This document shows positions 20,889 through 63,815 of a stretch of 64,000 nucleotides of DNA, piece by piece. Source of the stretch: an uncultured Gammaproteobacteria bacterium (GTDB taxonomy: Bacteria > Pseudomonadota > Gammaproteobacteria > Steroidobacterales > GCA-2729495); the NCBI GenBank assembly GCA_963717355.1, contig OY970328.1, positions 2,165,275 through 2,229,274 of the forward strand, in the 5' to 3' direction. Position 1 is the first letter of the stretch; each line of letters starts with the position of its first letter. Under the pieces are notes generated by a model. The model was given only the letters and a program-made list of their open reading frames with translations, ran no database searches and was not told where the DNA came from. The position numbers and the translations under genes were made by a program.

Positions 20889-21165
20889 CCAGCCGCGGGC
20901 CGGTGTAGCCCATAGGGCCGGCTTGCCTGCGCGGCGCAGCGAGCGAGGGCTGCGCGCAGCGTCGCCGGCAGGGATGCCGGCGATCCGCCGCGGCTTCCTG
21001 GCAGATGAGCTGCCTGTCTTGCAGCAGCACGTCCGGGTGCGACGAGCCAGGGATGGCGAGTGCGGCGGACACCGTGGCGAGCAAGCCGCGCAGGGTTCCC
21101 GCCGCACCGTCGTTCCACGGAGCGCATGCGCATCAGGCGGGCAAGCCGGCAGGGCACACCGGGGC
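20889..21165 (-). repeat. ~280 bp repeat, left flank of the accessory locus (inverted relative to 30340-30563)
   Basis: The reverse complement shares long identical blocks with 30340-30563: 31/31 GCGGCGGATCGCCGGCATCCCTGCCGGCGAC and 30/31 CGGTGTCCGCCGCACTCGCCATCC.TGGCTC. This copy has an extra ~49 bp internal insertion. Confidence 0.8.
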
Positions 21166-21222
21166 GGCTGGACGCCCGAGTCGCAGCGCTCGCCGCGCGC
21201 CCACGTGGCGATTAGCTGTGCC

Positions 21223-21253
21223 AAAAAAAGAAACCCCGCCGAGGCGGGGTTTC
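21223..21253 (-). terminator. Rho-independent terminator of the cohesin-like gene operon
   Basis: On the minus strand GAAACCCCGCC-TCG-GCGGGGTTTC is followed by TTTTTTT, 30 nt after the stop at 21283. Confidence 0.8.
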
Positions 21254-21282
21254 CGTTCATCCGGACTGGAGGATCCGGATTA

Positions 21283-21900
21283 TCAGGCGGCCTTGCGTCG
21301 GCGGCTGAAGCGGCCGGCGGCGAGAATCGCCGGGGCGATCAGCCAGGCAGTGGCCGGAAGCGGTACCACGCCGACATCGGCCTGCGAGTAGGTGACGGCT
21401 ATGGCGCCCGCGTCCTGGTCGGTCCAGCTGTTGTCGACGCCGTCGTCGAACACGTTGATGTTTGCGGTGGCGCCGCCCGCCGCGCTGCCGAGGACCTGGA
21501 AGTTGATCCGGTACGCGTCGAAGTCGCCGTGCGCATAGCCCGTCGCGTTACGCAGCACACTGATGATCACCGTGCTCGGATTCTGCACCGTCGGAGGGGT
21601 GATGAAGTCGAACGGCGTTCCCGGCGCCAGCGTGGCGCTGATCAGTGAGACCACTGAGTTGTCATACGTGATCGTGAGCGTCGAACCGGTCGTGCCCGTG
21701 GCCGTGCCGTCGCCCGGGAAGGCGATCCCGTGCAGCGTCACGAAAAACGAGTCGCCCGGGTTCACGACCGCGTCGCAGGTCGCCGGCGGCCCGCCGGCAT
21801 CGACGCACGTATCGTTCGGCCGCACCTCAACTGACGCCGCCATGGCGGCGGAGGAGCCGAGGAGCGCCAGCGCTCCGAGTGCAGAAATGGTCTTTTTCAT
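21283..21900 (-). CDS. Secreted cohesin-like beta-sandwich protein with VPLPA-CTERM (PEP-CTERM variant) sorting signal
   Basis: Signal peptide MKKTISALGALALLGSSAAMA. The body follows a cohesin-like pattern (PGDSFFVTLH...GSTLTITYDNSVVSL...LAPGTPFDF...GDFDAYRINFQVL...ANINVFDD). The C-terminus is GVVPLPATAWLIAPAILAAGRFSRRRKAA. Confidence 0.6.
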   Translation of the reverse strand: MKKTISALGALALLGSSAAMAASVEVRPNDTCVDAGGPPATCDAVVNPGDSFFVTLHGIAFPGDGTATGTTGSTLTITYDNSVVSLISATLAPGTPFDFITPPTVQNPSTVIISVLRNATGYAHGDFDAYRINFQVLGSAAGGATANINVFDDGVDNSWTDQDAGAIAVTYSQADVGVVPLPATAWLIAPAILAAGRFSRRRKAA

Positions 21901-21930
21901 GTTGTTATACCTCGGTATCGGTGGCGTGCG

Positions 21931-22539
21931 TTACACCCGGCGCAGGCGCTTGATGCCCGCGAGGCTGCCGAGCGCGCTCACCAGCATCCAGACCGCTGCC
22001 GGCACGGGGATGGGCGGACCGCCGCAGGAATTGACGCAGACGTTGGCCTGGTTGTAGCTCATCGGGATCGAGGCCGCATCCTGGTCGGTCCAGGCGTTGT
22101 CCGCCCCGTCGTCGAACACGACGATGTTCGCAACGCCATTCGCGATGGTCGCGAAGTTGATCTGGAAGGCATCGAACGTGCCGACCGCATAACCCGCGGC
22201 GTTACGCAGCGCGCTGACTTTCACCGACCCCGGGCCATTGGGAGTCAGAGGGGTGATGAAGTCGAGTGGTGAGCCGGGGCTCAGCGCCGCACCCGTCACG
22301 TTGACGATGGCCGGGTCGAAATTGATGGTCAGCGACGCACCGGTCGAGCCCGTGTTCGTGCCGTCGCCCGGCATGTCTGCGACATGCAAGGTCACGAAGA
22401 AATTGCCGGAAGGCACAGTGGCCGTGCAGCACGGCGTGGTGATGCCCGTGCTCGGAACCACTGACACCGTCGCCGCCATGCTCGCCGCCGAGCCAAGCAA
22501 CGCCAGCGCCCCCAAGGTCGTCACTATTGTCTTTTTCAT
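21931..22539 (-). CDS. Secreted cohesin-like protein with PEP-CTERM-type sorting signal (paralogue of 21283-21900)
   Basis: Same architecture: MKKTIVTTLGALALLGSAASMA...GNFFVTLH...ASLTINFDPAIVNV...GTFDAFQINFATI...ANIVVFDD...PIPVPAAVWMLVSALGSLAGIKRLRRV. Confidence 0.6.
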   Translation of the reverse strand: MKKTIVTTLGALALLGSAASMAATVSVVPSTGITTPCCTATVPSGNFFVTLHVADMPGDGTNTGSTGASLTINFDPAIVNVTGAALSPGSPLDFITPLTPNGPGSVKVSALRNAAGYAVGTFDAFQINFATIANGVANIVVFDDGADNAWTDQDAASIPMSYNQANVCVNSCGGPPIPVPAAVWMLVSALGSLAGIKRLRRV

Positions 22540-22623
22540 GTTGGCTTCTCGCTGTGTAGTTGGTAGTTGGTTGAATGAATAGTCAGTCGTCGATTTCCGA
22601 TTCTTCCCCCGGAAACCCGGACC

Positions 22624-24177
22624 TTACGGTCCGGGCGCCGTGTTCAGCCGATTGCGCAGCAGCGTGTAGTCCGCCGTCGTCACCGAGCCGGTGCCATTCA
22701 TGTCGGCCTTGATGATATTGCCGACCACGCACGGCGACGTGCACGACACCTCGTTGTCCAGATGGTTCAGCACGTTGCGCAACAGGGTGTAGTCGCTGGT
22801 GTTCACACCGCCGCTGTTATTGATGTCCGCATCGCACCAGTTGCCGAATGCGTCCGCTCCTCCGTCGGCGTTGAACTGCGACTTGGGAATGCTTGCCGTA
22901 TTCGGCACGTTGCCCGCCTCGTTGTTCGGCACCCAATCGCAGTTGTCGGTGACGTCGAGGATGGTGTCGTTGTCGTCATCGGTGTCACAGGCATTGCCCT
23001 GGCCGTCGTTGTCGACGTCGAACTGGTTGGCGTTGGCCACGTTGACGCAGTTGTCGACCGGGTCGCCAACGGTGTCGCCGTCGGCATCCAGGGCGAAGAT
23101 CATGTAGCTACGGCCGCCGAGGTTGGCGTTGTTCGGGCAGGCCGGTCCCTGGCCCGTTCCGAACAGGTAGCAACCGCCGCCGGGCTCCGGGCCGCCCTGG
23201 TTGGGGACGTCTGCCGGATCGGCGAGATCGTCGCTGTTGGACAGGACCAGGTAGTTGGCATCGTCCTGGTACTTGATGTTGAGGTCCAGCGCGCCCGAGG
23301 TCGCGGCGCAGCCGGGGCCCGCCTGGCCGAGGGTCTGAATCTCGAGGCCGCGGGGCTTCTCGGTGCCCTCGTGATAGGTGTTTTCAGGAGGCGTCGCACC
23401 GACGGTGCCGGGCCAACCGTCGTTCACCGTATCCAGCGGCTTCGGCGGCGCCTCGTCCGGACCGTAGTTCAGGCTGTAATCGTCCAGCGGCAGGGCGGGT
23501 GGGCCACCGGCATACGCCGTGCCCCCGTTGATGGTCTCGGTCACGCACTTCGGATTGCCGCCGACGTTCCATGAGGCAATGGTCTCGTCGGTGAGATTGC
23601 CAGTGTACCCGTTCGAGGTGTTGTTGCTCGAATTGAAATTCACGTTCTTGCAGCCACTCGCATACACCGAGGCGAGGAACACGCCCTCGATGCATTCGTA
23701 GGTGCTGGCGTTGGCGGCCGGCGTAGGGCCTACCGCGTACGTGAGGTTCGTAATCTTGTCGCTGATCACCTGCGTGCTGTTCGGGTTGCTGCCGATGTAC
23801 GACGTCGCCCACAGCATGCCCGTGGCCGTCATCGACGCGCCGGTCCAGTTCCAGGTGGCGATGCCGGCGCCGGTGATGGTGGCGATGACATTGTTGGTGA
23901 CGAGCCAGGAGGCCTGGCCGGAGGTATTCGGGGGCGTCGGGTTATAGCAGGGTTGCTTGTAGATCGCCGTCGTCGGCGTGTTCGAGGCGCCAGTCATCGT
24001 CGCGAGGTTCGGACAACCTTGCGCGGCGCCGGCTCTCCACGCGAGTGCACTCAACGCTCCGCCACTGCTTCGCTGATACCAGCCGACGAGCACAACGGGC
24101 CCGGTCGGTAACGCCATGGCAGTACCCCATACCGCCATTGATGCCGCCATCGCGGCGATCATTGCAACTTTCTTCAC
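22624..24177 (-). CDS. Secreted protein: novel 8-Cys N-terminal domain, thrombospondin type-3 Ca-binding repeats, C-terminal dockerin (two EF-hand-like repeats)
   Basis: TSP3 repeats: [50 protein letters not shown]. Dockerin repeats: [22 protein letters not shown] and [21 protein letters not shown] (D-x-N-x-S/T-G-x-V-x-x-x-D plus helix). Signal peptide [22 protein letters not shown]. Confidence 0.75.
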
Positions 24178-24933
24178 TTAACTATCCTCCAGAACGACAC
24201 GGTTGTTGGCAGACATTTCCGGTCTGGAAAGGTGTTGTCCTGTGGTCTTCCCCTTATCTCTCGCTCTCAAAATTCGCTTGTCGATTTTCGAGAGAGCAAG
24301 ACCTTGGACTTTCATTACTCTGCAGCCGCTGTAACACGACTGCAGGCGATCCCTTTTCGTCCGGTCGGGAGCCAGTCTACGCCCGCGAGGGGTGGGCGCA
24401 AGGCCTCCCTTAACATAATTTTCGAAATTGTCCGCAGCCTGAAGAACGGCCCTCGCGTCCGATTTTCCAGCGCATTTTTGCATCCGCAGCAGGAGCGAAT
24501 GGCATGCCCCGTCCAGACTCGGCAACTTGCATCGGACGGCGTCCCGAGACGCGCGTCCGGGCCAGGCGCTGCGCGGGCCGGCCGCACCTGCCAGCCGCGC
24601 CACCTATATATATGTGTCGAGGCCGGGCGGCATCGGCGCCGCCAGCAGCCGGAAACCCCTTGTGCCCCTTGACTGTTGCGCGACTTTACGGCACACGGGT
24701 CGCCAGCCCCGTACCGGGCGCTTTCGGGCACGGCCGGCGACTTGCCCGCGGGGACACTGTTACTGTAAGTTTGACCGGCATTCGCGAGGGGGTGTCGCGG
24801 GCGATGGAGGTCTGCCCGGCGACAATGACCAAGAGTGAAGGAGCTTCACGGCCACGCCGTGCGAGATTCCCGCCTGAAGTCCTGATGCAGTCCCCAAGCA
24901 CGATGCACAAGAGTAACTGGGGGATTCCCGGGC

Positions 24934-27099
24934 GTGTTCGCCGCCGGGATCCGTGTCAAGCGTGCTGAGGATCATTTCGTGGGAAAAGCAATACTCTCCT
25001 TCTTCTTCCTGGGCCTGCTCGCCGTCTCGAACTTCGCCGATGCCGCGACCTACAACCTGAAGCTGATCGTTCATAACCAGCGAAGCAGCAGCGGCACGCG
25101 CAGCACGCTCGTCTGGAAAGAATGCACGCCGAGCACCAACCTCGCGCCCTGCATTGCCTCGCCCACGCCGCAGTGGAACATCGACAACAACGTGGTCGGC
25201 TCCGACGCCGTGTGGACCTGGACGCCCGCGAGCGGCCTGGACGGGACCCTGGCAGAGACCGGCCAGTACTGGGTGACGTCCTACATCAACAGCAATCCCC
25301 GGGGCACGCCCGTGATCAGCGACCGCGTCGTGGATCTTGTCGTCGACACGCAGGCCCGCACGACGACGTTCGCATCGTACGACTGCATCGAGGGCACATT
25401 CCTCGCCGGCGTGAATGCGAGCGGCTGCAGGAACGTCAACCTCGGCTTCAACACCATCCTCGACAGCATCTCGGAATGGAATGTCGGCGGTGATCCCTAT
25501 TGCGTGACGCTTGAAATCGTCGACGACGACTTCAGCCTGCTCGACGGCAACAACGTCCCGATCTACAAGCCGGGCACGCCGAACCCGCGAGGCGGCCATG
25601 CCGTCAACCCCGGCGACCCGGGCCTGGCTCCCGGGTGCACCAAGACCTCGGGCGGATTCGACATCTGGTCGATGATCGATCCGGCCGTCGCGACCGCGCC
25701 GATGATCCCGACCAACCCGCTGACGAATCAGCCCTACGACCACTATGACCTCCTGTTCATCTCCAACGGCGTCGACGTCATCGGCTGCACGCTGCCCGTA
25801 GACATCGACTGCCAGGGCGCCAACTGGATAACGTTCGCGTACGCGCCGACCGCGAGCGACGACCCGGTCGATGTGCCGCAGGGCGTGGCGACGCCGGTCG
25901 ACGTGCTCGCCAACGACACCTACCTGACGCCGAACACCGGCGCCAGGACGATCAGTTTCGCGGCGCCCATCACGCTGACCATCGAGACGCAGCCCATCAA
26001 GGGCACCGCGCAGGTCACCGGCTCGACGATCACCTACACGTCCAATCCCACGGCGACCGGCAGCGACAGGATCGTCTACAAGGTGGTGGACGCCAACGGC
26101 GACAGCGATACCGCGACGGTTGATATCCACATGGATGTGCCCGGCGCCAGCGACGACACCGCCGTGGTGCTCATCAACGGCCCGGCGACGGACATCAACG
26201 TCGGCGCCAACGACACCGGGCTCACCGACCCGGTGACGGTCACGATCGAGACCCCGCCGGCCCGCGGCACGGCCACGGCCGGGCCTGTCGGGCCGAGGGC
26301 GGATGCCACCGTCAGCTTCACGCCGGACACGGTGCCTTATAACGCGGCGTCCTACGACGTGGAATTCAGCTACCGGATCGCAGACGGCACCGGCTTCAGC
26401 AGCACCGCCTTCGTGACGGTACACGTCAGGAAACCGCTCGAGGCGACGAGGACCATCACGACCCAGGGTCACGACCCGCTTGGCAGAACGGCCACTTTCA
26501 CGCCGTTCGGCAGCGACGTTACGATCCTGACGCAGGGCACGAGAGGCACCGTCACACAGAGTGGCAACCTCCTCACGTACACGATCACGGATCCCACCTT
26601 CTTCACGGGGTCCGACACGTTCACCTACCTGGTGACGGTTGCCGGCGAGGAGGTCTTCGGCCTGGTGACGGTAACAGTGCCGGATGCTCTCGCCGCTCCG
26701 CGAATGGAGGACGGCGTCATCCGGATGGACCAGGACACATCTGGCACCATCCTGCTCGGCATCGTGCCGGGCAACGGCACGCTGTCCCAGCACAACGTCA
26801 CGATCAGCACGCCGGCTGTCAGCGGCGACTGCACACTCAGTGGCGTCGGGACGCAGGTGATCTCGATCACCTATACGCCGGACCCGGGTTTTACGGGCAC
26901 CGACGAGTGCGTCGTGACGGCAACGGACGCCGACCTGGACTCGGGCCAGGCCACGATGCGCATGACGGTCCTTACGGCGACCAGCGGTGGCAGTGCCTCT
27001 CTGCCGGGCGGTGGCGGGTCGGTGGACCTGTGGAGCCTCTCGCTGCTCGCGGGGGCGTGGTCACTGCGGCGCCGCCTTCGTGGCCGGGGCAACGGGTAG
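24934..27099 (+). CDS. Secreted protein: the same 8-Cys N-terminal domain, tandem cadherin/Ig-like repeats, GlyGly-CTERM sorting signal
   Basis: The likely true start is GTG 24979 (VGKAILSFFFLGLLAVSNFADA). Repeats of the type DDPVDVPQGVATPVDVLANDT / DDTAVVLINGPATDINVGANDT. C-terminus SGGSASLPGGGGSVDLWSLSLLAGAWSLRRRLRGR. Confidence 0.75.
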   Translation: MFAAGIRVKRAEDHFVGKAILSFFFLGLLAVSNFADAATYNLKLIVHNQRSSSGTRSTLVWKECTPSTNLAPCIASPTPQWNIDNNVVGSDAVWTWTPASGLDGTLAETGQYWVTSYINSNPRGTPVISDRVVDLVVDTQARTTTFASYDCIEGTFLAGVNASGCRNVNLGFNTILDSISEWNVGGDPYCVTLEIVDDDFSLLDGNNVPIYKPGTPNPRGGHAVNPGDPGLAPGCTKTSGGFDIWSMIDPAVATAPMIPTNPLTNQPYDHYDLLFISNGVDVIGCTLPVDIDCQGANWITFAYAPTASDDPVDVPQGVATPVDVLANDTYLTPNTGARTISFAAPITLTIETQPIKGTAQVTGSTITYTSNPTATGSDRIVYKVVDANGDSDTATVDIHMDVPGASDDTAVVLINGPATDINVGANDTGLTDPVTVTIETPPARGTATAGPVGPRADATVSFTPDTVPYNAASYDVEFSYRIADGTGFSSTAFVTVHVRKPLEATRTITTQGHDPLGRTATFTPFGSDVTILTQGTRGTVTQSGNLLTYTITDPTFFTGSDTFTYLVTVAGEEVFGLVTVTVPDALAAPRMEDGVIRMDQDTSGTILLGIVPGNGTLSQHNVTISTPAVSGDCTLSGVGTQVISITYTPDPGFTGTDECVVTATDADLDSGQATMRMTVLTATSGGSASLPGGGGSVDLWSLSLLAGAWSLRRRLRGRGNG

Positions 27100-27188
27100 A
27101 ACGCGGCTCGAGGTGGGGCCGGTAGCCAACAAATGCCCGTGACGGCCGGTCGCGGGCATTTTCGTAGGGGATTCTCGGGGGACAAGGC

Positions 27189-30100
27189 ATGACGATGGAT
27201 AAGAAAGAGATCTGCAACGGGGCAGGCAGCGCGGCCGCCATCCTGATGGCTCTGATGGCCGGGGTGGCCCTACAGGCCATACCAAACGGCGCCCTCGCCC
27301 AGGAGATTGAGGAAATCACCGTCACGGCGCGCCGCGTGGAGGAGAAATTGAAAGAGGTGCCGCTCGCGATCACCGCGTTCGACGAGAAGGCGATCGAAGC
27401 GGCCGGCATCACGAATCTCAGCGACGTGGCCGCCCTCACGCCTGGTCTCTCGTTCTTCAACGCCTTCGGCGAAGCCCTGCCCGTGCCAATCATCCGCGGC
27501 ATCGTGCCCCAGGACATCTTCGGCCAGAATGCGGCCGCGATCTTCGTGGACGGCGTGTACGTGTCCGGCCGCGAAGGTTTGAACTTCAGCCAGCTCGACA
27601 TCGAGCGCATCGAGGTGCTGAAGGGCCCGCAGAGCGCCATGTACGGCCGCAACGCGTTCAGCGGCGCCATCAACTACGTCACCAAGAAACCGAGCGACGT
27701 CTTCGAAGCGAAGGGCAGCGTCGGCCTCGGCAATTACGGCCGGCAGAAGGTCATCGGCTCCATCAGCGGCCCGATCTTCAGCGAGAGCTTCACGGGCCGC
27801 ATGTCGGCGCTCTACGAGGATTGGGACGGCTCGTACGACAACACGCTCGGCTCCACCGACATCGGCGGCTACCGCTATCGCAGCTTCCAGGGGCGGCTGC
27901 GCTGGGTAGCGGCGGATAACCTCGAATTCAACCTCGGCGCCTATTACTCCAAGGACCACATCGACGATCCGGCCACGAGCAGCATTCCGGTCAACTGCGA
28001 GGACCGCGTGGAGCAGACGAAGGATAACCAGCTGACGCGGCCTTATCCTCGCTTCCAGACCTGGTGCGGCAAGATCCCGGATCTCGCCGCCCTGCCGGAC
28101 AGCCTGGACCGCGAGGCCCTGATCAACCAGCAGTTCGTGACGCTGCCGGGCTCGGTCACCGGTGATTCGATGCCGGCGGAGGACCAGGCAGTCGGCGAGG
28201 CCCGCAACCTCACGCGCGCCAATTTCAGCATCGCCTGGGAACCCGGTGACTGGGGCAGCTTCGCGAGCCTCACCGGCTACTCGAATCTCAAGAACTCCAG
28301 CGTGTTCGACTTCGAGCGTGGCGCGGGCAACACGGTACCCATGGTCTACTGCCCCAACATCGGGACAACGGGGAACTCCGGTTTGCCCCAGTGCCTGAAT
28401 CTAGACGGCAGCGGCGGGGCCGACAACTACTACACGCAGCTCTGGCCGATGGGTTTCATCAACTACAACCGCGGCTCCACAACCGAGGAATGGAGCCAGG
28501 AAATCCGCTTCACGAGCCCGCAGGATCAGCGACTGCGCTGGACGGCCGGCGCCTATTATTTCGACTCCAACGAGGTCGGCTACCAGGGCGGGCTGATCAC
28601 GACGACGCCGCTGCCGTCAGTCTCGGATCCGGATATTCCGGCTTATCTGCAGTTCGGCCTGGGTCCGATTCCGAGTACGACGAACCTCGCCATCGGATCC
28701 TTCATCTTCGGGCCTGGCATAACGCCGGACGGCGCCAGGGATCCGCTGGACCGGAAGAGGTCAGAAGAGGACATCAAGTCCTGGTCCGTCTTCGGCGGCG
28801 GGGATTTCAAGATCACGGAGGAGTGGGAGCTCCACGGCGAGCTGCGCCTGACGCAGCAGTACCAGGAGCAGTTCGCCTACAGCTACAAGCGCTGCGCCCA
28901 GTCGTTCAACCCCGATCCGAACAGCGAGTTCAACGGCCAGATTCCCCCGATCTACCGTACGAACCAGTTCCCGTTCAACACTCCGCCGTCCGACCTCTGC
29001 GGCGACGATTATTTCGACCTGCGTACGGCCTACGACCCGTCGACCACTCCTTACGACAACGGGCCGTACACCACCGGGCCGTGCGAGCCCTTGCTGGACG
29101 AGATCGGCCAGGAGCTCAACAACGGCGTGTGCGTGCCCGGCGCCTTCACGGGCTCGACGCGCTTCGAGACGGTCACCGGACGCCTCGGCATCAAGTGGAT
29201 GTTCAATCCGGACTGGATGGTGTACGCCTCCGTAGCCTACGGCGAGAAGCCGGGCGGCATTCAGCTCCTACGTCCGAGCGTGTTCACCGCGAACCGCTCG
29301 GTCATCCCCGAGCCCATCTCTCACACCTTCGACCCGGAGAAGATCACGGCCTACGAGGTCGGCATCAAGGGCACGACCGCGGACCGGCGCATCAGCATCG
29401 ATCTCGCGGCGTTCTACAACGACTGGACCGACATCGTGCTCCGCCAGTTGACGGAGCTCTCGCCGAAGAGCGGCCTGACGTACACCAGCCTCGTCGGCTT
29501 CAACATCAACTCGGGCGATGCCGGGGTCTGGGGCTGGGAGGCCACGACCGACCTCGCGATCACCGAAAATCTGACCGGGCGCCTGACCGCGGCCTGGACC
29601 GACTCGACGATCAAGAACGCGCGGCAGGACACCTTCGCCCTCTTCCCGAGCTTCTACACCGATGAGCCGAGCTGCGCGCCGGAGGCCATCGCCGGCCTCC
29701 CGGACCCGACGCCCTTCATCGACGACGCTCCCGGCCAGCCGGGCACCGGGTATCCCAACAAGGAGGGCAACGAGGCCCAGACCAACAAGGCGAAGCAGTG
29801 CCAGGCGATATCGGGCGATGTCTCCGGCAACACGCAGATGCGCCAGCCGGAGTGGACGGCCAGCGCCTCTCTGACCTACGACCACTCGCTCGCCGGCGAG
29901 TGGAACTGGTCGGCGCGTGCCGACGCCAACTATGTCGGCAAGATCTTCCTCGGCAACGACAACCTCGGCTGGATGCCGGCATACTACAACGTGAATTTCC
30001 GGATGGGGGTCAGCTCGCCGCGCTACTCGGTGGATTTCTGGGTGCGCAACCTCCTCGAGAACAACAACCCCACCGCGGCCTTCCGCGACATCTACTGGTC

Positions 30101-30254
30101 GAACAACAGCAACCTGACGGGAATGGAGAGCGGCGATCCGGCGCAGTTCTCGAACTTCGACGACTTCCCGCCGTTGCGGCTGTCCGTCAGCTATCCGAGC
30201 CTGCGTACGTACGGGCTCGAGGCGAAGATGCGGTTCGGCGGCGCCGAGCGCTAA
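27189..30254 (+). CDS. TonB-dependent receptor (large, ~1020 aa)
   Basis: Signal peptide, then a plug domain (EEITVTARRVEEKLKEVPLAITAF...IERIEVLKGPQSAMYGRNAFSGAINYVTKKP) and a long beta-barrel ending YPSLRTYGLEAKMRF. Confidence 0.9.
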   Translation: MTMDKKEICNGAGSAAAILMALMAGVALQAIPNGALAQEIEEITVTARRVEEKLKEVPLAITAFDEKAIEAAGITNLSDVAALTPGLSFFNAFGEALPVPIIRGIVPQDIFGQNAAAIFVDGVYVSGREGLNFSQLDIERIEVLKGPQSAMYGRNAFSGAINYVTKKPSDVFEAKGSVGLGNYGRQKVIGSISGPIFSESFTGRMSALYEDWDGSYDNTLGSTDIGGYRYRSFQGRLRWVAADNLEFNLGAYYSKDHIDDPATSSIPVNCEDRVEQTKDNQLTRPYPRFQTWCGKIPDLAALPDSLDREALINQQFVTLPGSVTGDSMPAEDQAVGEARNLTRANFSIAWEPGDWGSFASLTGYSNLKNSSVFDFERGAGNTVPMVYCPNIGTTGNSGLPQCLNLDGSGGADNYYTQLWPMGFINYNRGSTTEEWSQEIRFTSPQDQRLRWTAGAYYFDSNEVGYQGGLITTTPLPSVSDPDIPAYLQFGLGPIPSTTNLAIGSFIFGPGITPDGARDPLDRKRSEEDIKSWSVFGGGDFKITEEWELHGELRLTQQYQEQFAYSYKRCAQSFNPDPNSEFNGQIPPIYRTNQFPFNTPPSDLCGDDYFDLRTAYDPSTTPYDNGPYTTGPCEPLLDEIGQELNNGVCVPGAFTGSTRFETVTGRLGIKWMFNPDWMVYASVAYGEKPGGIQLLRPSVFTANRSVIPEPISHTFDPEKITAYEVGIKGTTADRRISIDLAAFYNDWTDIVLRQLTELSPKSGLTYTSLVGFNINSGDAGVWGWEATTDLAITENLTGRLTAAWTDSTIKNARQDTFALFPSFYTDEPSCAPEAIAGLPDPTPFIDDAPGQPGTGYPNKEGNEAQTNKAKQCQAISGDVSGNTQMRQPEWTASASLTYDHSLAGEWNWSARADANYVGKIFLGNDNLGWMPAYYNVNFRMGVSSPRYSVDFWVRNLLENNNPTAAFRDIYWSNNSNLTGMESGDPAQFSNFDDFPPLRLSVSYPSLRTYGLEAKMRFGGAER

Positions 30255-30277
30255 GCCGCGAGAGGGCTGATCACGAC

Positions 30278-30301
30278 GGGGCCAGGCGAAAGCCTAGCCC
30301 C
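30278..30301 (+). terminator. Possible terminator hairpin after the TonB-dependent receptor gene
   Basis: GGGGCCAGG-CGAAAG-CCTAGCCCC (1 mismatch) followed by GTTCGCTTTG. The T-tract is weak. Confidence 0.35.
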
Positions 30302-48348: not shown

Positions 48349-49057
48349 CTAGCTTATGTCGCAACTACAGCACGGGCCCGCTGCACGAGCCGTGACGCGC
48401 GTCACGGCCGCGTTGGACAGCGGAAAACGTTCCCCCGCCATTCCCTGATCGGCGAAGTGTGCCACGGAGCCGTTCCGCCGCACAACCGCGCATTCACGTG
48501 CCGCCACCCTCCGCTGGGTTTTCGGGAGGTGGCCTTCGGCGCCTTTCTGCCCGTCCACGAAGAGGGCGGACCTGCCGCCGGAGCCGGGCTTGGAGCCGTC
48601 GCTCACGAACTCGTACTTGATCGTGCTTGCCCGCGGAAGCCGCCGCAGGTCCCGAAATTCTGGTGCGCTCGGCGCCGAAGAAGTTGTACTCGTGAAGTAC
48701 CCGGCCCTCTTTCATGTAGAGGGTCCAGCCGCCGAAGGCGCTCGACTGGCCGAAACCGATGTCGTCGAGCAGAACGATCACGACGTTAGGCGCACCACTG
48801 GGCGCCCTCACCTCGAAGCGCGGCGGCGCCTTGGCATTGCGCGCATCGAGCTCCGTGAAGGCCGGCGCAACCGGCTCCGGAATCGGCAGCATGGTGCGGT
48901 CGAGCTCCGCCGCAGATCGTTGCACGACCTCCTGGGCCATGACTGCTGAGACAGGCGCGAGGAGCACGCTTAGCGAGATCCACGTCAGTGCTCTCGCGCA
49001 TGAATCTCGTTGGCGGATGTTAGGATTGCCGATGTCATGAGCCACAAGCGCGTTCAC
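48349..49057 (-). pseudogene. Arylsulfatase remnant with a large internal deletion and a frameshift
   Basis: A signal region plus PNVVIVLLDDIGFGQSSAFGG (the N-terminal sulfatase motif) is fused directly to the C-terminal-domain sequence WTLYMKEGRVLHEYNFFG. It then continues in another frame, IKYEFVSDGSKPGSGGRSALFVDGQKGAEGHLPKT. The CxPxR active-site region is absent. Confidence 0.7.
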
Positions 49058-51253
49058 GCTGGCATCGTCGCGCTCCTCATCGTCGCCGCGGTACTCGGAG
49101 CATGGGCCTGGCAGCGAAGCGCCTACGCGCCGTCGCCCCCGCCGGCGTTCGTCGGCTCATCCGCGTGCGTGTCCTGCCATGCCGCCGAGCACGCCGCGTG
49201 GTCGGCGTCCCAGCACGCCCTCGCCATGCAGCCCGTCACCGACAAGTCCGTGCTCGGGCGCTTCGATGGCGAGGCTTTCACCGTGGGCGGCGTCAGCTCG
49301 ACCTTTTCCCATGACGGGGGCCGCTACCTCGTGCAAACCGATGGCGCCGATGGCAAGCCCGCCGACTTCGAGGCGAAGTACACCTTCGGCGTCTACCCGC
49401 TCCAGCAATATCTCCTGCCCCTGCCAGGCGGGCGCCTGCAGGCCCTGGGGATCGCGTGGGATGCGCGGCCCGCGGCGTCCGGCGGCCAGCGCTGGTTTCA
49501 TCTCTACCCGGATGCGCCGCCTGAAGCCGGCGGCCCGCTGCACTGGACCGGCACCGATCAGAACTGGAACTACCAGTGCGCCGACTGCCATTCGACCAAC
49601 GTCCGGAAGAACTTCGACGCGCCCGCCGGCACGTTCGCGACGACCTGGTCGGAAATCAGCGTCGGCTGCGAGGCCTGCCACGGGCCGGCCTCGAACCACC
49701 TCGCCTGGGCGCGCCGCGGGAAGGGATGGCGCGCACTGGGCGAGGCCCGCGGGCTCACCGTGACTCTGGACGAGCGACGCGGCGCCGAGTGGCGCCGCAC
49801 CGATGCGCCCACCGCGACGCGTTCCGGGCCACGAACGACCTCGCGCGAGATCGACACCTGCGCCCGTTGTCACTCGCGCCGCGGCCAGTATTCGGATGCC
49901 ATCGCCGCCGGAGGCAACTGGCTCGACGCATTCCGCCCCGCGTTGATCGAGCCCGGTCTCTACTATGCCGACGGCCAGCAGCGAGACGAGGTCTACACCT
50001 GGGGCTCGTTCGTGCAGAGTCGGATGCACGCAGCCGGCGTTACCTGCGCCGATTGCCACGAGCCGCACTCGGGGAAGCTCCGCGCTGCCGGCAATGCGGT
50101 GTGCGCCCACTGCCATGCGCCGGAGACCTTCGACGTGCCTGCCCATCACCACCACGCCGCGGGCTCGCAGGGAGCGCAATGCACCGCCTGCCACATGCCC
50201 GCCAGCACCTACATGGTGATCGACCCGCGGCACGACCACTCGCTGCGCATCCCGCGACCGGACCGCAATGCCGCGACCGGCGCGCCGGACGCCTGCACGG
50301 CGTGTCACGCCAATCGCGACCCGGCGTGGGCGGCGGCGCAGATCCACGCCTGGTATCCGCAGCCCGGGCCCGGTTTTCAGACATTCGCGGACGCCTTCGC
50401 CGCAGCGGATCGAGGCGAGCCGGCAGCCGCGGATGCGCTGGCGACGATCATCGCCGACCCCGCACAGCCATCGCTCGTGCGCGCGAGCGCCCTCGCCCGG
50501 CTGCTTCGCTTCCTCGATCCGGAAAACCTGACGGTCGTCGCCAACGCGCTGCGGGATCCGGATGCACTGGTGCGCGCCACCGCCGCGGATGCCTTCAGCC
50601 TCGTCCCGCCGGCCGAGCGCACGGATCGGCTCTCGCCGCTGCTCTCCGACCCGGTGCGCCTGGTGCGCATGGCGGCGGCGCGCTCGCTCGCCGGCGAAAG
50701 CGAAAGCCGGCTCGTCGGCGAGGAGCTCAGCGCTTTCGCGAGCGCGCTCGGCGAGTGGACGGCGGCGCAGGAATTCAATGCCGATCGCCCCGAGGCGCTC
50801 ACGAACCTCGGGACGCTGCAAACCGAGCGCCAGAACTGGAACGCGGCGATCGCGGCGTATCGGAAGGCACTCGCGCTCGATCCGACGTTCGTGCAGGCCG
50901 CCGTGAATCTCGCCGACGCCGATCGTGCGCTCGGCGACGAGGCTGCCGCGGAGAAGGTGCTGCGTGAAGCGCTCGCGCGCAATCCGCAAGCGCCTGCGGC
51001 CCGCCACGCGCTCGGGCTCGCGCTCATCCGGCAGGGCCGGGTGAAGGAGGCGCTCGCAGAACTGCGCCGCGCGGCCGAGCTCGAACCCTCGCAGCCGCAC
51101 TTCGCCTTCGTCTATGCCGTGGCCCTGCACGACACGGGCGATGCCGATACCTCCATCGCTACTCTGCGCCGGGCGATCGCCGCGCACCCGTACGAGCGCG
51201 AGCTCGTGCAAGCTCTCGCTGCCTACCAGGGCGAATTGAAGGCGCCTCGCTGA
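49010..51253 (+). CDS. Octaheme c-type cytochrome fused to HEAT-like and TPR repeats
   Basis: Eight CxxCH motifs (CVSCH, CADCH, CEACH, CARCH, CADCH, CAHCH, CTACH, CTACH) in the N-terminal ~430 aa, then HEAT-like (DPDALVRATAADAF, DPVRLVRMAAARSLAG) and TPR repeats. The probable start is MSHKRVH at 49037, with an N-terminal TM anchor. Confidence 0.85.
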   Translation: MADVRIADVMSHKRVHAGIVALLIVAAVLGAWAWQRSAYAPSPPPAFVGSSACVSCHAAEHAAWSASQHALAMQPVTDKSVLGRFDGEAFTVGGVSSTFSHDGGRYLVQTDGADGKPADFEAKYTFGVYPLQQYLLPLPGGRLQALGIAWDARPAASGGQRWFHLYPDAPPEAGGPLHWTGTDQNWNYQCADCHSTNVRKNFDAPAGTFATTWSEISVGCEACHGPASNHLAWARRGKGWRALGEARGLTVTLDERRGAEWRRTDAPTATRSGPRTTSREIDTCARCHSRRGQYSDAIAAGGNWLDAFRPALIEPGLYYADGQQRDEVYTWGSFVQSRMHAAGVTCADCHEPHSGKLRAAGNAVCAHCHAPETFDVPAHHHHAAGSQGAQCTACHMPASTYMVIDPRHDHSLRIPRPDRNAATGAPDACTACHANRDPAWAAAQIHAWYPQPGPGFQTFADAFAAADRGEPAAADALATIIADPAQPSLVRASALARLLRFLDPENLTVVANALRDPDALVRATAADAFSLVPPAERTDRLSPLLSDPVRLVRMAAARSLAGESESRLVGEELSAFASALGEWTAAQEFNADRPEALTNLGTLQTERQNWNAAIAAYRKALALDPTFVQAAVNLADADRALGDEAAAEKVLREALARNPQAPAARHALGLALIRQGRVKEALAELRRAAELEPSQPHFAFVYAVALHDTGDADTSIATLRRAIAAHPYERELVQALAAYQGELKAPR

Positions 51254-53539: not shown

Positions 53540-54406
53540 CTAAGCAAGACCGAACTGCTTCTCGAACTCCATCGGGCTGATCCCGCCCAGCGTCGAATGC
53601 CGGCGCCGGGGATTGTAGAACCGCTCGATGTAATCGAACACTTCGGCCCTGGCCTGATCTCGAGTGCTGAACCGTTGTCGGTTGACGCACTCGATCTTCA
53701 TGCTCGAGAAGAAACTCTCCATCGGTGAATTATCCCAGACGTCGCCACGGCGGCTCATGCTGCAGGTGACACCGTGCGCGGCAAGCAACTGCTGGAACTC
53801 CTCACTCGTGTACTGGCTGCCCTGGTCGGAGTGGTGGAGCAGCTCCCGCGGCTGACCGCGCCGCCAGATCGCCATGAGGAGCGCGTCGATCACGAGCTCG
53901 GCGGTCATTCGGGTTCTCATGGCCCAGCCGACTACGCGACGTGAGCACAGATCGAGAACCACGGCCACGAACAGCCAGCCCTCGCCGGTCGGCACATACG
54001 TGAAGTCAGCGAGCCAGCTGCGGTTCGGTTCCTCGGCGGTGAACCGCCGATCCAGTACGTTCGGTGCGATCGCCGACACCGGCCGCTCGCCAATGTCCAC
54101 CGGTTGCCTACGTGGCCGCGAACGGCCTTGAATCCCAGCCTGGCGCATCAGGCGCGCCACCCGATGCACGCTGCAGCGATAGCCCCAGTTGTAGAGATCA
54201 AGCCACACCCGCGGGCTACCGTAGGTCTTCCTGCTTTCCGCGAAGCTCGTGCGAATCACGCCGAGCAGGTCCCGGTCATCCCGGGCGCGGGCGCTCTCGG
54301 GCCTGCTCAACCATTCGTAGAAGCCGCTAGCCGAAACCTCCAGCACGCGGCACATCATCCGGACCGGCCAGATGTCCCGATGCTTCGCCATGAACCGGAA
54401 CTTCAC
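53540..54406 (-). CDS. IS3 transposase OrfB (DDE integrase core), expressed by -1 frameshift from OrfA
   Basis: WLADFTYVPTGEGWLFVAVVLDLCSRRVVGW...HSDQGSQYTS...DNSPMESFFSSMKIE (DDE motif). Confidence 0.9.
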   Translation of the reverse strand: MKFRFMAKHRDIWPVRMMCRVLEVSASGFYEWLSRPESARARDDRDLLGVIRTSFAESRKTYGSPRVWLDLYNWGYRCSVHRVARLMRQAGIQGRSRPRRQPVDIGERPVSAIAPNVLDRRFTAEEPNRSWLADFTYVPTGEGWLFVAVVLDLCSRRVVGWAMRTRMTAELVIDALLMAIWRRGQPRELLHHSDQGSQYTSEEFQQLLAAHGVTCSMSRRGDVWDNSPMESFFSSMKIECVNRQRFSTRDQARAEVFDYIERFYNPRRRHSTLGGISPMEFEKQFGLA

Positions 54407-60611: not shown

Positions 60612-61412
60612 TCAATTCTTCTTTGGCGTGGCCGCTTCGCGTGCCGCCCGCGCCTTGGAATCCAGGCAGTCGATCTTCCCGGCCGCGGGCATGCGGGCGT
60701 TGTCGAGACGGCAGCGGAACCGCGAACTGAACTCCTGCATCATTGCGTCGAGCTGATCGAATTCCATGCGCACCGGCTTCTCGCCGCCACCCCGGATGGC
60801 GACGAGCTGTGCGAGAACCTCCTTCGACTCGCTGTCGACGAGCTCCCCCTGTAGCGTCATGTGCATGATGTCGTACTTCTCCATCATGTCCCTCATCGAA
60901 TCCGCACCGAATTTCACCACCGCTCCGACGGGCGTGTAGGCGAGCAGCCGGCGCGACTTTCTCTTGAGGTCGAGATCGGTCAGGGCCACTCGCACGTAAA
61001 TGATGCCCGGCCCCGGCGCGTCCACCGTGTTGTACCCCCCCGCGGTCAGCCGGTCATCGAGCGCCTTGCGGAGCATTTCCGCGATCTGCCCGAGGTCATT
61101 CGGCTTGGCGCCCTTGTATTCGGACTGCGGGCTGACCAGCACCTCCGGCTGGTCCACCAGGATCCCGGTGTACTTGCCCACCTTGTCGAAAGCGCCCGGC
61201 GCGAGATATACGAGGTCCGTGTCCTTGCCGTCCGCCGATGGCCTGGCCTGCAGCTTGCTGTAGTCGGTCAGGAATGTCTTGTCGTAGGTCTGAGCCGGCG
61301 CCTGAGCCTGGGCTGGCGCCTGGGACTGGGCCGGGGCCTGGGTCGCGCAACCCGACAGGCCGCAGGCCAGTACGGCAACCGCCGAGATCGTTGCGATGCG
61401 AGTCGTGCTCAT
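60612..61412 (-). CDS. DUF3313-like lipoprotein
   Basis: MSTTRIATISAVAVLACGLSGC (lipobox), an AQ/AP-rich linker, then YDKTFLTDYSKLQ... The upstream 19 codons of the listed ORF are unlikely to be translated. Confidence 0.6.
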   Translation of the reverse strand: MSTTRIATISAVAVLACGLSGCATQAPAQSQAPAQAQAPAQTYDKTFLTDYSKLQARPSADGKDTDLVYLAPGAFDKVGKYTGILVDQPEVLVSPQSEYKGAKPNDLGQIAEMLRKALDDRLTAGGYNTVDAPGPGIIYVRVALTDLDLKRKSRRLLAYTPVGAVVKFGADSMRDMMEKYDIMHMTLQGELVDSESKEVLAQLVAIRGGGEKPVRMEFDQLDAMMQEFSSRFRCRLDNARMPAAGKIDCLDSKARAAREAATPKKN

Positions 61413-61550
61413 GGGAAAACCCTTCTTTGTATGGATGAGTGGCAGCCACCACCGCCGCCTTGTGGGCAAACGACGCAGCCGCTGACGCCGATAGTGTACT
61501 GGATACTATACTGCCGTCTCGTTTTCCTGGTGACGGTGGAGCGCTCCCAG

Positions 61551-63815
61551 ATGCCACTGCGACAACATTCGCGCCGGCTCGCACTGCACCTGGCAATCAC
61601 CATCGCCGTTGCCGTCTCGGGGACGGCGCTTGCCCAACAGCCGCCCGATGCACCGGCGCCACGGCCGCGCATCGGCCTGGTGCTCGGCGGCGGCGGCGCG
61701 AAAGGCGCCGCGCACATCGGCGTGCTGCGCGAGCTCGAGGACCTGCGCATACCGGTGGACTGCGTCGCCGGCACGAGCATGGGCGCGCTCGTTGGCGCGA
61801 CCTTCGCGGCCGGCGTGCCGCCCGAGGAAATCGAGGCCGCGGTCCTCGCCGTCAACTGGTCCGCCACCGTGGGCAGCCAGGGGCTGCGCGACCGGACGCC
61901 GATTGACCAGAAACTGCAGGGCGTCACCTATACCAACAACCTCGATCTCGGCCTGAAGGGTGGCCAGATCAAGACACCGGGCGGCTTGCTCAAGACACAG
62001 GACATCGAAGCTCTGCTGCGGACCCTGGTGGCGGGCGCGCGCTACGTCGACGATTTCGACAAGCTGCCCATTCCCTTCCGCGCCGTCGCAACCGACATGA
62101 TGGCCGGCGAAATGGTCGTGCTGGGCGAGGGCGACCTCACGGTGGCGATGCGCGCCAGCATGGCCGTGCCGGGAGCGTTCTCGCCGGTGATCATGGGTAA
62201 CCGGGTGCTCGCCGACGGCGGCCAGATGCGCAACGTCCCCGTGGATATCGCGCGCAATCTCTGCGGCGACGTGATCATCGCCGTCTCGCTCGAGTCGCCG
62301 CCGCCGAAGGCCGAGGAACTGACCTCGGCACTGGCCCTGGTGGGCCGCTCGGTGGACGTCATGATCGACGCCAACACGAGGGCGCAGCTCGCCACCCTCA
62401 CGGACAGGGACGTCAGCATCGTCGTGCCCATGAGCGACATCGGCTCGGCTAGCTTCGATCGTGTGCCGGACGCCATCCCGCTCGGCCGCGCGGCGGCGCT
62501 GGCGCAGGCTGCCAGTCTCTCCCGCTATTCGGTGAGCCCGGAGGAGTACAGCGCCTGGCGGAAGTCGGTCGACCGCGGTTTCGAAAAGTCTTTCCGGGTG
62601 GCCGGCGTGCAGATCGCCGGCCTGCAACGCGTGAATCCCGAGTACGTGCGCGGCCAGATCAGGTCCACGGTGCCTGGCGGGGAAGTTACGCCGGCCGGCA
62701 TTGCCGCCGACACCAGCCGGATCTTTGCGCTCGGCGATTTCGAGAAAGTCGAATACGAAATCGTCGACAAGCCGACATACCCGACCGTGGAGTTCACCGC
62801 CATCGAGAAATCATGGGGCCCTGATTTCCTGCGCTTCGACCTCGGGCTGGCGGCATCGGGCGGCGGGGACTTCTCCTTCGCCGTGCGGGGGGAGCACGCG
62901 CGCACCTGGGTGAATTCGCTCGGTGGCACCTGGCACAGCGCGCTCCAGCTCGGCCAGACCGCGCTGGCCGAGACGGCCCTCTACCAGCCGCTCGATGTCC
63001 TCCATCGATTTTTCGTCGAGCCCATCGCCAAGATCAACCGCACCCGGGAAGACGTTTACGACGACGGCGAACGGGTGGCCGAGTACGAGTTCAGCGAAGG
63101 CTATGGCGAGCTCGATGTCGGCATGAACTTCGGCACCCGCGCCCAGCTGCGCGCAGGCATACGCCGCTCCGAAGCGCAGGCGAGCCGGCAGACGGGCGCC
63201 TCCGATCTGCCGGAGCTCGATTGGACCCGCGAATCGGACCTGCTCTTCAAGGCCATCTACGATACCCGGGACTCGGTGGCGCTGCCGACACGCGGAGCCA
63301 TGCTGCTGGGGCGCTACATCAGTTCCGGATCGTGGCTGGGCGGCGAGCAGTCCTACGCCGCGGTCGATGCCCTTGTCGCGAAGGCCTTCCCGTTCCGGGG
63401 CGACACCCTGTACTTGCTGGCGGCTGGCGGTGACGAGTTGAACGGCGAGCTGCCGCCCTACCGCCAGTTCCGCCTGGGAGGCATCCGCAGCTTCCCGGGC
63501 CTCGAGCGCGAGCAGTTGCGCGGCACCCGGTACTGGCTCGGCTCAGCGAGCTACAACTGGAAGGTGGCGGACATCCAGGCACTGTTCGGCCAGGCACTCT
63601 ACGGCGGACTGCGCCTGTCTGCGGGCCAGATGTACGACCGGGTGGACGGCGTGGATGACGGCGTCATGTACGGCGCTGCGGTCAGCGGCAGCGGCCGCAC
63701 GCCGATCGGGCCGGTGACCCTGTCGCTCGGCGGCACGAGCGACGGCTTCTGGCAGCTCCAGTTCGCGCTCGGCCGGCCGGTCGAGGAAGGCTCGATCATC
63801 GACGAGATCTACTAG
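61551..63815 (+). CDS. Patatin-like phospholipase fused to an Omp85-type beta-barrel (PlpD/type Vd secretion-like)
   Basis: Starts MPLRQHSRRLALHLAITIAVAVSGTALA. Patatin motifs GGGGAKGAAHIGV, GTSMG and DGG. The C-terminal ~350 aa have beta-barrel character ending in the FALGRP region. The 60861-61550 part of the listed ORF is spurious (antisense to the lipoprotein gene). Confidence 0.8.
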   Translation: MPLRQHSRRLALHLAITIAVAVSGTALAQQPPDAPAPRPRIGLVLGGGGAKGAAHIGVLRELEDLRIPVDCVAGTSMGALVGATFAAGVPPEEIEAAVLAVNWSATVGSQGLRDRTPIDQKLQGVTYTNNLDLGLKGGQIKTPGGLLKTQDIEALLRTLVAGARYVDDFDKLPIPFRAVATDMMAGEMVVLGEGDLTVAMRASMAVPGAFSPVIMGNRVLADGGQMRNVPVDIARNLCGDVIIAVSLESPPPKAEELTSALALVGRSVDVMIDANTRAQLATLTDRDVSIVVPMSDIGSASFDRVPDAIPLGRAAALAQAASLSRYSVSPEEYSAWRKSVDRGFEKSFRVAGVQIAGLQRVNPEYVRGQIRSTVPGGEVTPAGIAADTSRIFALGDFEKVEYEIVDKPTYPTVEFTAIEKSWGPDFLRFDLGLAASGGGDFSFAVRGEHARTWVNSLGGTWHSALQLGQTALAETALYQPLDVLHRFFVEPIAKINRTREDVYDDGERVAEYEFSEGYGELDVGMNFGTRAQLRAGIRRSEAQASRQTGASDLPELDWTRESDLLFKAIYDTRDSVALPTRGAMLLGRYISSGSWLGGEQSYAAVDALVAKAFPFRGDTLYLLAAGGDELNGELPPYRQFRLGGIRSFPGLEREQLRGTRYWLGSASYNWKVADIQALFGQALYGGLRLSAGQMYDRVDGVDDGVMYGAAVSGSGRTPIGPVTLSLGGTSDGFWQLQFALGRPVEEGSIIDEIY

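Follow-up and report, generated by a model that had tools for sequence, protein, structure and literature searches.

A predicted cohesin-dockerin tethering pair with exosortase-type sorting tails in a gammaproteobacterium

Introduction

We describe a three-gene operon on the minus strand of a 64 kb stretch of DNA from an uncultured gammaproteobacterium (hereafter the window) that is probably a cohesin-dockerin tethering pair adapted to the diderm cell. It encodes a secreted protein of 517 amino acids (aa) carrying thrombospondin type 3 (TSP3) repeats and a double dockerin repeat, together with two secreted proteins of 202 aa and 205 aa, each made of a body with a predicted cohesin fold and a C-terminal tail of the exosortase type. 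Cohesin-dockerin assembly is a textbook principle of the Gram-positive cellulosome. What would be new here is that diderm bacteria tether non-cellulolytic cargo by cohesin and dockerin, through an anchor of the exosortase type. Comparative data come from homologue searches and related loci, and the coordinates of all features are collected in Table 1.

Results

The operon encodes a dockerin protein and two cohesin-like proteins

The three open reading frames (ORFs) are separated by gaps of 84 bp and 30 bp, and a hairpin at 21254-21229, directly downstream of the 205 aa gene, closes the unit, in agreement with an original prediction, made from the letters of the window alone, of a minus-strand operon with a terminator. 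The G+C content at third codon positions (GC3) of the three ORFs is 0.85-0.86, matching real, neighboring housekeeping genes of the genome, and the 517 aa gene, which starts with GTG, is preceded by a Shine-Dalgarno sequence, GGAGGA.

The 517 aa protein carries a type I dockerin (PF00404) at its C-terminus. Pfam Dockerin_1 matches residues 451-512 with 32.7 bits (cut-off 22.9; E 8.4e-8), and the two repeats are near-symmetric, each comprising a 12-residue EF-hand-like loop followed by YTLLRN (helix). The TSP3 repeats that precede it score 30.7 bits with Pfam TSP_3 (cut-off 25). Both modules had been read from the letters beforehand, and the Pfam check returned the PF00404 match that was expected. 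The family profile of its homologues matches the solved type I dockerins 4fl4_A, 5nrm_B, 2ccl_B and 1ohz_B; the same profile also gave RecA matches, which we regard as spurious because they have no accepted matched stretch. A second dockerin protein of this genome, encoded outside the window (P0193), shares the ADYT[LR]LRN signature. No relative of the N-terminal ~300 residues of the 517 aa protein, a Cys-rich region that we call the cargo domain, was found in Pfam, in NCBIfam or among PDB sequences.

With 49% identity (E 5e-62) the 202 aa and 205 aa proteins are paralogues of each other, and the latter matches the hidden Markov model (HMM) of the cohesin-like family over its full span (E 6e-54). 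A word-indexed homology search over 5.8 billion clustered proteins returned 5 close relatives, and still only 13 with an 80-sequence profile. An exhaustive profile search returned 392 representatives at E<=1e-3, mostly of 180-220 aa; all family-level counts given below refer to an alignment of 80 family members. Against the PDB, the 80-member profile matches the cohesins 3l8q (E 1.9e-9) and 5lxv (3.8e-7) and about 20 more (1qzn, 5g5d, 4ums and 1tyj among them), and its significant matches are mostly cohesins. PF00963, the Pfam cohesin family, is matched individually by 17 of the 80 members, and NCBI names one member of the family "cohesin domain-containing protein". NCBIfam gave no cohesin match for either protein of the window, and no NCBIfam model covers the body region over the 80 members.

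Structure prediction points to the same family. AlphaFold2 with 5 sequences gave a predicted local distance difference test score (pLDDT) of 66, too uncertain for use. With the 80-member alignment, the model of the 202 aa protein reached a pLDDT of 89.2 and a predicted template modeling score of 0.76, with an all-beta body at residues 23-169 that agrees with the ~140-150 residue nine-stranded jelly roll of cohesins and with the original prediction of two paralogues that each have a signal peptide plus a beta-sandwich body. A Foldseek search of this model against the PDB gave 54 matches at E<=1e-3 (probability 1.0), the first 50 being nearly all cohesins, of types I, II and III as well as the non-cellulosomal cohesins of Archaeoglobus fulgidus and Clostridium perfringens. 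Among them are 6kge_A (E 2.7e-6) and 2vo8, with the highest target TM-score (0.82). Sequence identity of the model to solved cohesins is 10-17%, and homology is detected at the profile level only. Because the family profile matches PDB cohesins and the predicted model retrieves cohesins in Foldseek, we accept that the ~200 aa proteins have a predicted cohesin fold and remote cohesin homology. An unrelated fold, the outcome that would speak against this assignment, did not emerge from either the profile or the structure search.

The 202 aa protein scores above the cut-off of the VPLPA-CTERM model TIGR03370 (25.35 bits), both as a whole (26.4 bits) and with its tail alone (31.7 bits). Across the family, 60 of the 80 members match VPLPA-CTERM and 38 match PEP-CTERM (PF07589); 43 show weak matches to the PepA model, which probably come through the tail. 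The tandem cohesin-like pair is conserved across species, each member with its own tail type, …SALGSLAGIKRLRRV versus …APAILAAGRFSRRRKAA (window, L001 and family alignment), which hints at two fates or two sorting enzymes for the paralogues.

Cohesin-like and dockerin genes are paired across lineages

A scan for dockerin proteins at one genome per species yielded 426 relatives, and 73 loci were fetched, the source genome of the window not being among them. These loci were queried with the dockerin-protein alignment and are thus biased to dockerins, which look-ups from the cohesin-like proteins offset. HMMs of both modules found a dockerin ORF in 76 non-redundant loci and a full-length cohesin-like ORF within +/-10 kb in 24 of them. 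Twenty of these 24 loci have the two genes directly side by side on one strand, and in most cases the dockerin gene comes first and the cohesin-like gene follows 4-120 bp downstream; by our estimate, random placement within +/-10 kb would bring about such adjacency in a few percent of cases. The lineages of these loci include several gammaproteobacterial metagenome-assembled genomes (MAGs), Pseudomonadales, Cellvibrionaceae and Aquabacterium, and the pairing extends to Nitrospirales. There, in one MAG (L003), the cohesin-like gene lies 95 bp downstream of the gene for a 952 aa PPC/GDSL-lipase/TSP3 protein whose C-terminal dockerin is weak with Pfam (17.3 bits) and clear with a clade-specific HMM (E 6e-15). 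A Sulfuricaulis MAG (L006) has its cohesin-like gene 35 bp downstream of that for a 1029 aa Lcl_C/PKD protein with an above-cut-off Dockerin_1 match (23.4 bits), and the order is reversed in L086, whose cohesin-like gene is followed 91 bp downstream by the gene for a Dockerin_1 protein of 770 aa. Seen from the cohesin-like side, the very short contigs L001, L002 and L087 and a stalked paralogue described below were uninformative or negative for such pairing, and the partial upstream ORFs of L001 and L087 have no dockerin end. Since gene adjacency is conserved in many lineages, it strengthens the functional link between dockerin and cohesin-like proteins.

The dockerin tag is carried by unrelated cargo

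The dockerin proteins encoded beside cohesin-like genes all carry the same TSP_3 plus Dockerin_1 module, attached to unrelated catalytic or toxin modules that include Peptidase_C25, Peptidase_S8, GH16, GDSL lipase, purple acid phosphatase with EEP nuclease, beta-propeller or RHS toxin. Within single genomes the module itself is uniform. SOY_4_C_metabat_98 has at least 32 dockerin modules on otherwise unrelated proteins with a mean identity of 81%; the identity is 70% within ATF_17, 90% within Aquabacterium and 42-64% between genomes. At least 13 dockerin modules are found in ATF_17, and in both this genome and SOY_4_C_metabat_98 the genes often form tandem arrays (five in L022). In the RHS-repeat toxin of L079 (6473-10972), encoded beside a cohesin-like gene, the TSP3 and dockerin sit as an insertion immediately ahead of the RHS core/C-terminal region, suggesting a polymorphic toxin that docks at the surface.

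Three proteins unite both modules in a single chain, with a cohesin-like module at the N-terminus and TSP3 and dockerin at the C-terminus. No PEP-CTERM tail was found on any of the three, and their design resembles that of adaptor scaffoldins, so they could act as adaptors. The locus of one of them (L009) has four dockerin genes in succession. The genome of the window encodes a third cohesin-like paralogue outside the window (P0006, 653 aa; Logan contig of ERR12036778), with an N-terminal cohesin-like module, four choice-of-anchor D / ASH-HYDIN immunoglobulin (Ig) domains and a C-terminal transmembrane/Arg tail, GLAGGSSLDVETLLGLGILGYAIKRRRRH. From its domain order it looks like a cohesin on a stalk.

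The operon belongs to a five-gene cassette

A divergently encoded 721 aa protein has an N-terminal domain homologous to that of the 517 aa protein (E 2e-27). It continues with 4 Big_9/cadherin-like Ig domains (Big_9 89.5 bits) and ends in a GlyGly-CTERM tail with a GG motif, a transmembrane helix and an Arg cluster. The true start of this protein is probably downstream of the listed GTG, as the signal peptide begins ~17 residues in. Two other loci (L010 5936-6790 and L040 5756-6589) encode ~275 aa proteins in which the same cargo domain has its own VPLPA-CTERM-like tail. The domain is therefore seen with three C-terminal devices, namely TSP3 and dockerin, Big_9 and GlyGly-CTERM, or a direct VPLPA-CTERM-like tail. 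If the dockerin is an anchoring device, alternative C-terminal devices are expected, as seen, and the Cys-rich cargo domain would behave as a "choice-of-anchor" domain with three alternative anchors.

The Big_9 protein, a TonB-dependent receptor, the dockerin protein and the two cohesin-like genes make up a cassette that is also found in full in a gammaproteobacterial MAG (L010, 40% identity) and in a syntenic metagenome contig (L008), and as its Big_9/receptor/dockerin part in L035. The receptor adjoins the cargo family in four lineages, with orthologues beside the cassette in L008, L010/L018 and L035. The original prediction had placed a TonB-dependent receptor nearby, and the gene product indeed matches both domains of this class, the N-terminal plug and the 22-strand barrel. 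Its NCBIfam subfamily matches are all far below the cut-offs, and no substrate class was assigned. All components of that prediction that could be tested turned out as proposed, and none of the contrary outcomes that it named was seen among those tested. Its description of the operon as a "minimal" scaffold does not hold, as the operon is part of the five-gene cassette and of a much larger family.

Discussion

As a tethering pair, the operon would work through export, sorting and capture. All three proteins would be exported by Sec via their N-terminal signal peptides. Each ~200 aa protein would consist of a single cohesin-fold module and a VPLPA/PEP-CTERM tripartite tail (motif, transmembrane helix and Arg/Lys cluster), and an exosortase encoded elsewhere would cleave this tail, by analogy with PEP-CTERM proteins, passing the cohesin to the envelope or the exopolysaccharide matrix. 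The 517 aa protein would fold its TSP3 repeats and two-repeat dockerin around Ca2+ and be captured by the cohesin(s), whereby the cargo domain would be held at the cell or matrix surface, near the co-conserved TonB-dependent receptor, which may take up what this domain binds or releases. In the wider family, single-module exosortase-tagged cohesins may be receptors for a genome-specific TSP3 and dockerin tag on many unrelated exoenzymes and toxins. Exosortases cleave PEP-CTERM, and the floc phenotype of PepA favors surface anchoring; rhombosortase cleaves GlyGly-CTERM, after which the type II secretion system (T2SS) takes the protein to the surface (10.1101/2023.06.07.544157).

This can be taken further, to the proposal that many Gram-negatives (Gammaproteobacteria, Burkholderiales, Nitrospirales) have an as yet undescribed, cellulosome-like display made of exosortase-processed cohesin receptors, dozens of TSP3- and dockerin-tagged secreted proteins (proteases, lipases, nucleases, glycosidases and RHS toxins) and fusion adaptors, with receptor-coupled uptake in the window. 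On this broader proposal our judgment is evenly balanced. The system may work like a cellulosome but is not one: the single-cohesin proteins lack a carbohydrate-binding module (CBM), no glycoside hydrolase domain is present in the window's cargo, and among the cargo of related loci the only glycoside hydrolase is the GH16.

Several observations weigh against a tethering pair. A Pfam scan of the 202 aa and 205 aa proteins gave no direct PF00963 match even at E<=1, and the profile of the close family (5 sequences) retrieved no cohesin from PDB sequences, only a spurious peroxidase match. The claim that the bodies are cohesin-like thus stands on the family profile and Foldseek, and not on the direct Pfam match that had been expected. 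Exosortase-type anchors had likewise been claimed for both paralogues; the TIGR03370 cut-off is exceeded by the 202 aa protein and missed by the 205 aa protein, whose tail has the same architecture (13.2 bits whole, 18.6 bits tail alone). No exosortase or T2SS gene was found among the main ORFs of the window. For one family member (P0012) neither flank shows a dockerin gene, on a contig of 965 bp only. A cohesin-like gene within 10 kb is missing from 52 of the 76 dockerin loci, which fits one receptor for many cargos and equally fits independence of the modules. We know of no route by which a cleaved PEP-CTERM protein would cross the outer membrane. In addition, ZepA, a PEP-CTERM protein, was found released in the exoproteome, and PEP-CTERM proteins are not necessarily retained (PMC10957091). 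The earlier wording that the cohesins are "covalently sorted to the cell surface" overreaches, because what becomes of PEP-CTERM proteins once they are cleaved is not settled and ZepA is released.

How far these observations favor another explanation depends on what else it has to accommodate. The missing Pfam match and the low identity to solved cohesins would suit chance resemblance or mis-annotation, with the ~200 aa ORFs being generic beta-sandwich PEP-CTERM proteins in which "cohesin" was over-read. This is highly improbable given the profile-to-PDB E of 1.9e-9 with significant matches dominated by cohesins, the 17 members that match PF00963 independently and the one so named by NCBI, the Foldseek probability of 1.0 for ~50 cohesin structures and the conserved gene pairing with dockerins. 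The modules could also be genuine without being partners. The cohesin-fold PEP-CTERM proteins would then belong to the matrix or to adhesins and bind exopolysaccharide or one another, the TSP3 and dockerin a Ca2+-stabilized domain or a secretion or matrix tag, and the adjacency a matter of envelope/secretome co-regulation. The Foldseek list also includes CBM2 (6qfs) and the Gram-negative adhesin CLIPPER domain (9ifr), 43 family members weakly match the PepA model, most dockerin loci have no cohesin-like gene nearby, and a precedent exists in further PEP-CTERM proteins with a beta-sandwich, among them the floc protein PepA. One passage of the literature, citing Peer et al. 2009, describes the function of non-cellulosomal cohesin and dockerin modules as unknown (PMC5244752). 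We nevertheless regard this explanation as unlikely: direct same-strand adjacency in 20 of 24 loci, in distant lineages and with unrelated cargo, is hard to attribute to co-regulation alone, dockerins within a genome are far more conserved than their carrier proteins, the best profile and structure matches are cohesins of known dockerin-binding function, and fusions of cohesin and dockerin exist.

The partnership could be real and serve export instead, if the cohesin-like protein binds the dockerin of its neighbor in the periplasm and carries it through an exosortase-linked pathway, after which both may be released. In that case the pair would serve as an escort for export or as a maturation device and not as a static surface anchor, which the tight gene-by-gene pairing with the dockerin gene usually first, the lack of T2SS genes nearby in the window and the release of ZepA (PMC10957091) would all suit. 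A dedicated escort suits genomes with dozens of dockerins and few cohesin-like genes less well than a shared receptor does, and the module of P0006, which tips a long stalk of Ig domains that has its own C-terminal anchor-like tail, looks like display. The GlyGly-CTERM paralogue also points to retention at the surface as the outcome that selection has favored for the cargo domain (10.1101/2023.06.07.544157). We find the escort explanation distinctly unlikely and retain the tethering pair as the favored interpretation.

Known anchoring cohesins offer the comparison for such a pair. Ruminococcus flavefaciens ScaE (2zf9) and Clostridium thermocellum OlpA, OlpC and SdbA likewise combine one cohesin with an envelope anchor and are presumed to receive a secreted dockerin; ScaE joins its cohesin to an LPXTG sortase signal, and OlpA, OlpC and SdbA join theirs to SLH. 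In ScaE, too, a C-terminal sorting signal is processed by a membrane transpeptidase, and Gram-positive anchoring cohesins are among our Foldseek matches (2zf9, 3ul4, 4dh2). Here, by contrast, the predicted anchor is VPLPA/PEP-CTERM in a diderm rather than LPXTG or SLH, the proteins are of only ~200 aa and have no X-module or linker, the cargo is not plant-cell-wall enzymes, and the similarity is remote (10-17%). Non-cellulosomal cohesins from A. fulgidus (2xdh) and from C. perfringens glycoside hydrolases (2vo8, 2jh2), which likewise stand outside cellulose degradation, are good structural matches to the 202 aa model (target TM-score 0.70-0.82).

The nearest idea in the literature is the "planctosome" hypothesis for freshwater Planctomycetes, a purely bioinformatic proposal in which cohesin/dockerin and thrombospondin type 3 repeats tether peptidases and not cellulases (PMC6461901). 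It shares with our system a cellulosome-like complex in a non-Firmicute, TSP3 repeats and peptidase cargo, and differs in that an adaptor is used and the anchor is a lamin-tail domain on a protein of 2,210 aa, without exosortase-type tails or small single-module cohesins (PMC6461901). The exosortase substrates PepA (Zoogloea) and ZepA (Anabaena) and the rhombosortase substrate VesB (Vibrio cholerae) likewise pair a Sec signal with a tripartite C-terminal tail. TonB-dependent transporters and further PEP-CTERM proteins are encoded in the neighborhood of ZepA (PMC10957091), and with VesB-type tails the protein is retained at the surface once it has passed the T2SS (10.1101/2023.06.07.544157). 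In those cases the tagged protein is itself the effector, whereas here it is the proposed receptor for a second secreted protein. Our literature search found no paper that joins cohesin or dockerin with PEP-CTERM, an earlier listing in the 2009 non-cellulosomal survey being possible. One paper reports dockerin and exosortase, treated separately, in ANME archaea, and a 2025 cellulosome review considers Gram-negatives only as engineered display hosts.

The locus and its relatives thus present a testable diderm architecture, in which a ~150-residue cohesin body with an exosortase-type tail would be the receptor for a TSP3 and dockerin tag. Operonic cognate pairs and genomes with dozens of tagged exoenzymes make it directly testable. 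If binding is true, it would assign a function to one PEP-CTERM protein family, explain how secreted hydrolases and toxins are retained at the cell or biofilm surface in some environmental Gram-negatives, and supply natural orthogonal cohesin-dockerin pairs for Gram-negative surface display.

Locus features and flanking genes

Table 1. Coordinates of features in the window and in related loci. TM, transmembrane.
Feature	Position	Strand	Basis or remark
ORF, cohesin-like protein B (P0004), 205 aa	21283-21900	-	ORF listing
VPLPA-type tail VPLPATAWLIAPAILAAGRFSRRRKAA of 205 aa protein	21286-21366	-	TIGR03370 below cut-off
Beta-sandwich body of 205 aa protein	21367-21834	-	
Signal peptide of 205 aa protein	21835-21900	-	
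ORF, cohesin-like protein A (P0001), 202 aa	21931-22539	-	ORF listing
VPLPA-CTERM tail IPVPAAVWMLVSALGSLAGIKRLRRV of 202 aa protein	21934-22011	-	TIGR03370 above cut-off
Beta-sandwich body of 202 aa protein	22033-22470	-	
Signal peptide of 202 aa protein	22471-22539	-	
ORF, dockerin-bearing secreted protein (P0161), 517 aa	22624-24177	-	ORF listing
Double dockerin repeat of 517 aa protein	22627-22833	-	Pfam Dockerin_1 match at residues 451-512
TSP3 Ca-binding repeats of 517 aa protein	22939-23088	-	residues about 364-413
Cys-rich N-terminal (cargo) domain of 517 aa protein, no assigned function	about 23158-24102	-	
Signal peptide of 517 aa protein	24112-24177	-	
Intrinsic-terminator-like hairpin closing the three-gene unit	21229..21254	-	11-bp stem, 7 GC pairs, then T run
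Divergent intergenic region between dockerin operon and Big_9/TonB-receptor genes	24178..24933	.	
Paralogous cargo-domain protein, 721 aa	24934-27099	+	N-terminal domain match, Big_9, GlyGly-CTERM
GlyGly-CTERM (rhombosortase-type) tail of 721 aa protein	27007-27096	+	TIGR03501 18.6 bits, cut-off 15.5
TonB-dependent receptor, 1021 aa	27189-30254	+	Plug 68.7 bits, TonB_dep_Rec_b-barrel 82.7 bits (Pfam)
Fusion protein (P0010)	L009 14059-15816		N-terminal cohesin-like module, C-terminal TSP3 and dockerin
Fusion protein	L017 9197-10363		N-terminal cohesin-like module, C-terminal TSP3 and dockerin
Fusion protein	L082 13996-15744		N-terminal cohesin-like module, C-terminal TSP3 and dockerin
SOY_4_C_metabat_98 loci	L014, L020-L028, L031-L035, L038, L040, L043, L044, L047		
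ATF_17 loci	L010-L013, L015, L017, L019, L029, L041, L060		

The intergenic region between the two divergent units presumably houses the promoters of both; a sigma-70 scan of it returned 0 promoter-like sites. From 21000 to 30300 the G+C content is ~0.63-0.65, as against ~0.70 in the flanks. We rejected a foreign island as the explanation of this dip and attribute it to Thr/Asn/Ser/Gly-rich secreted proteins, because GC3 is unchanged there at 0.85-0.89.

The remainder of the window encodes ordinary metabolism, with hut genes, leucine-catabolism carboxylases, amidohydrolases and an M1 peptidase. Between 52000 and 60000, 8 kb with a G+C content of ~0.60 contain an ORF for an insertion sequence (IS)-type integrase (rve, HTH_21; 53540-54406, minus strand), and this stretch may be an insertion sequence or a small island. 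A 747 aa protein encoded at 49010-51253 on the plus strand has HEAT and many TPR repeats alongside multihaem motifs of cytochrome c (Cytochrome_C7, paired CXXCH), and at 60861-63815, also on the plus strand, a 984 aa protein joins a patatin-like phospholipase domain to an Omp85 barrel domain.

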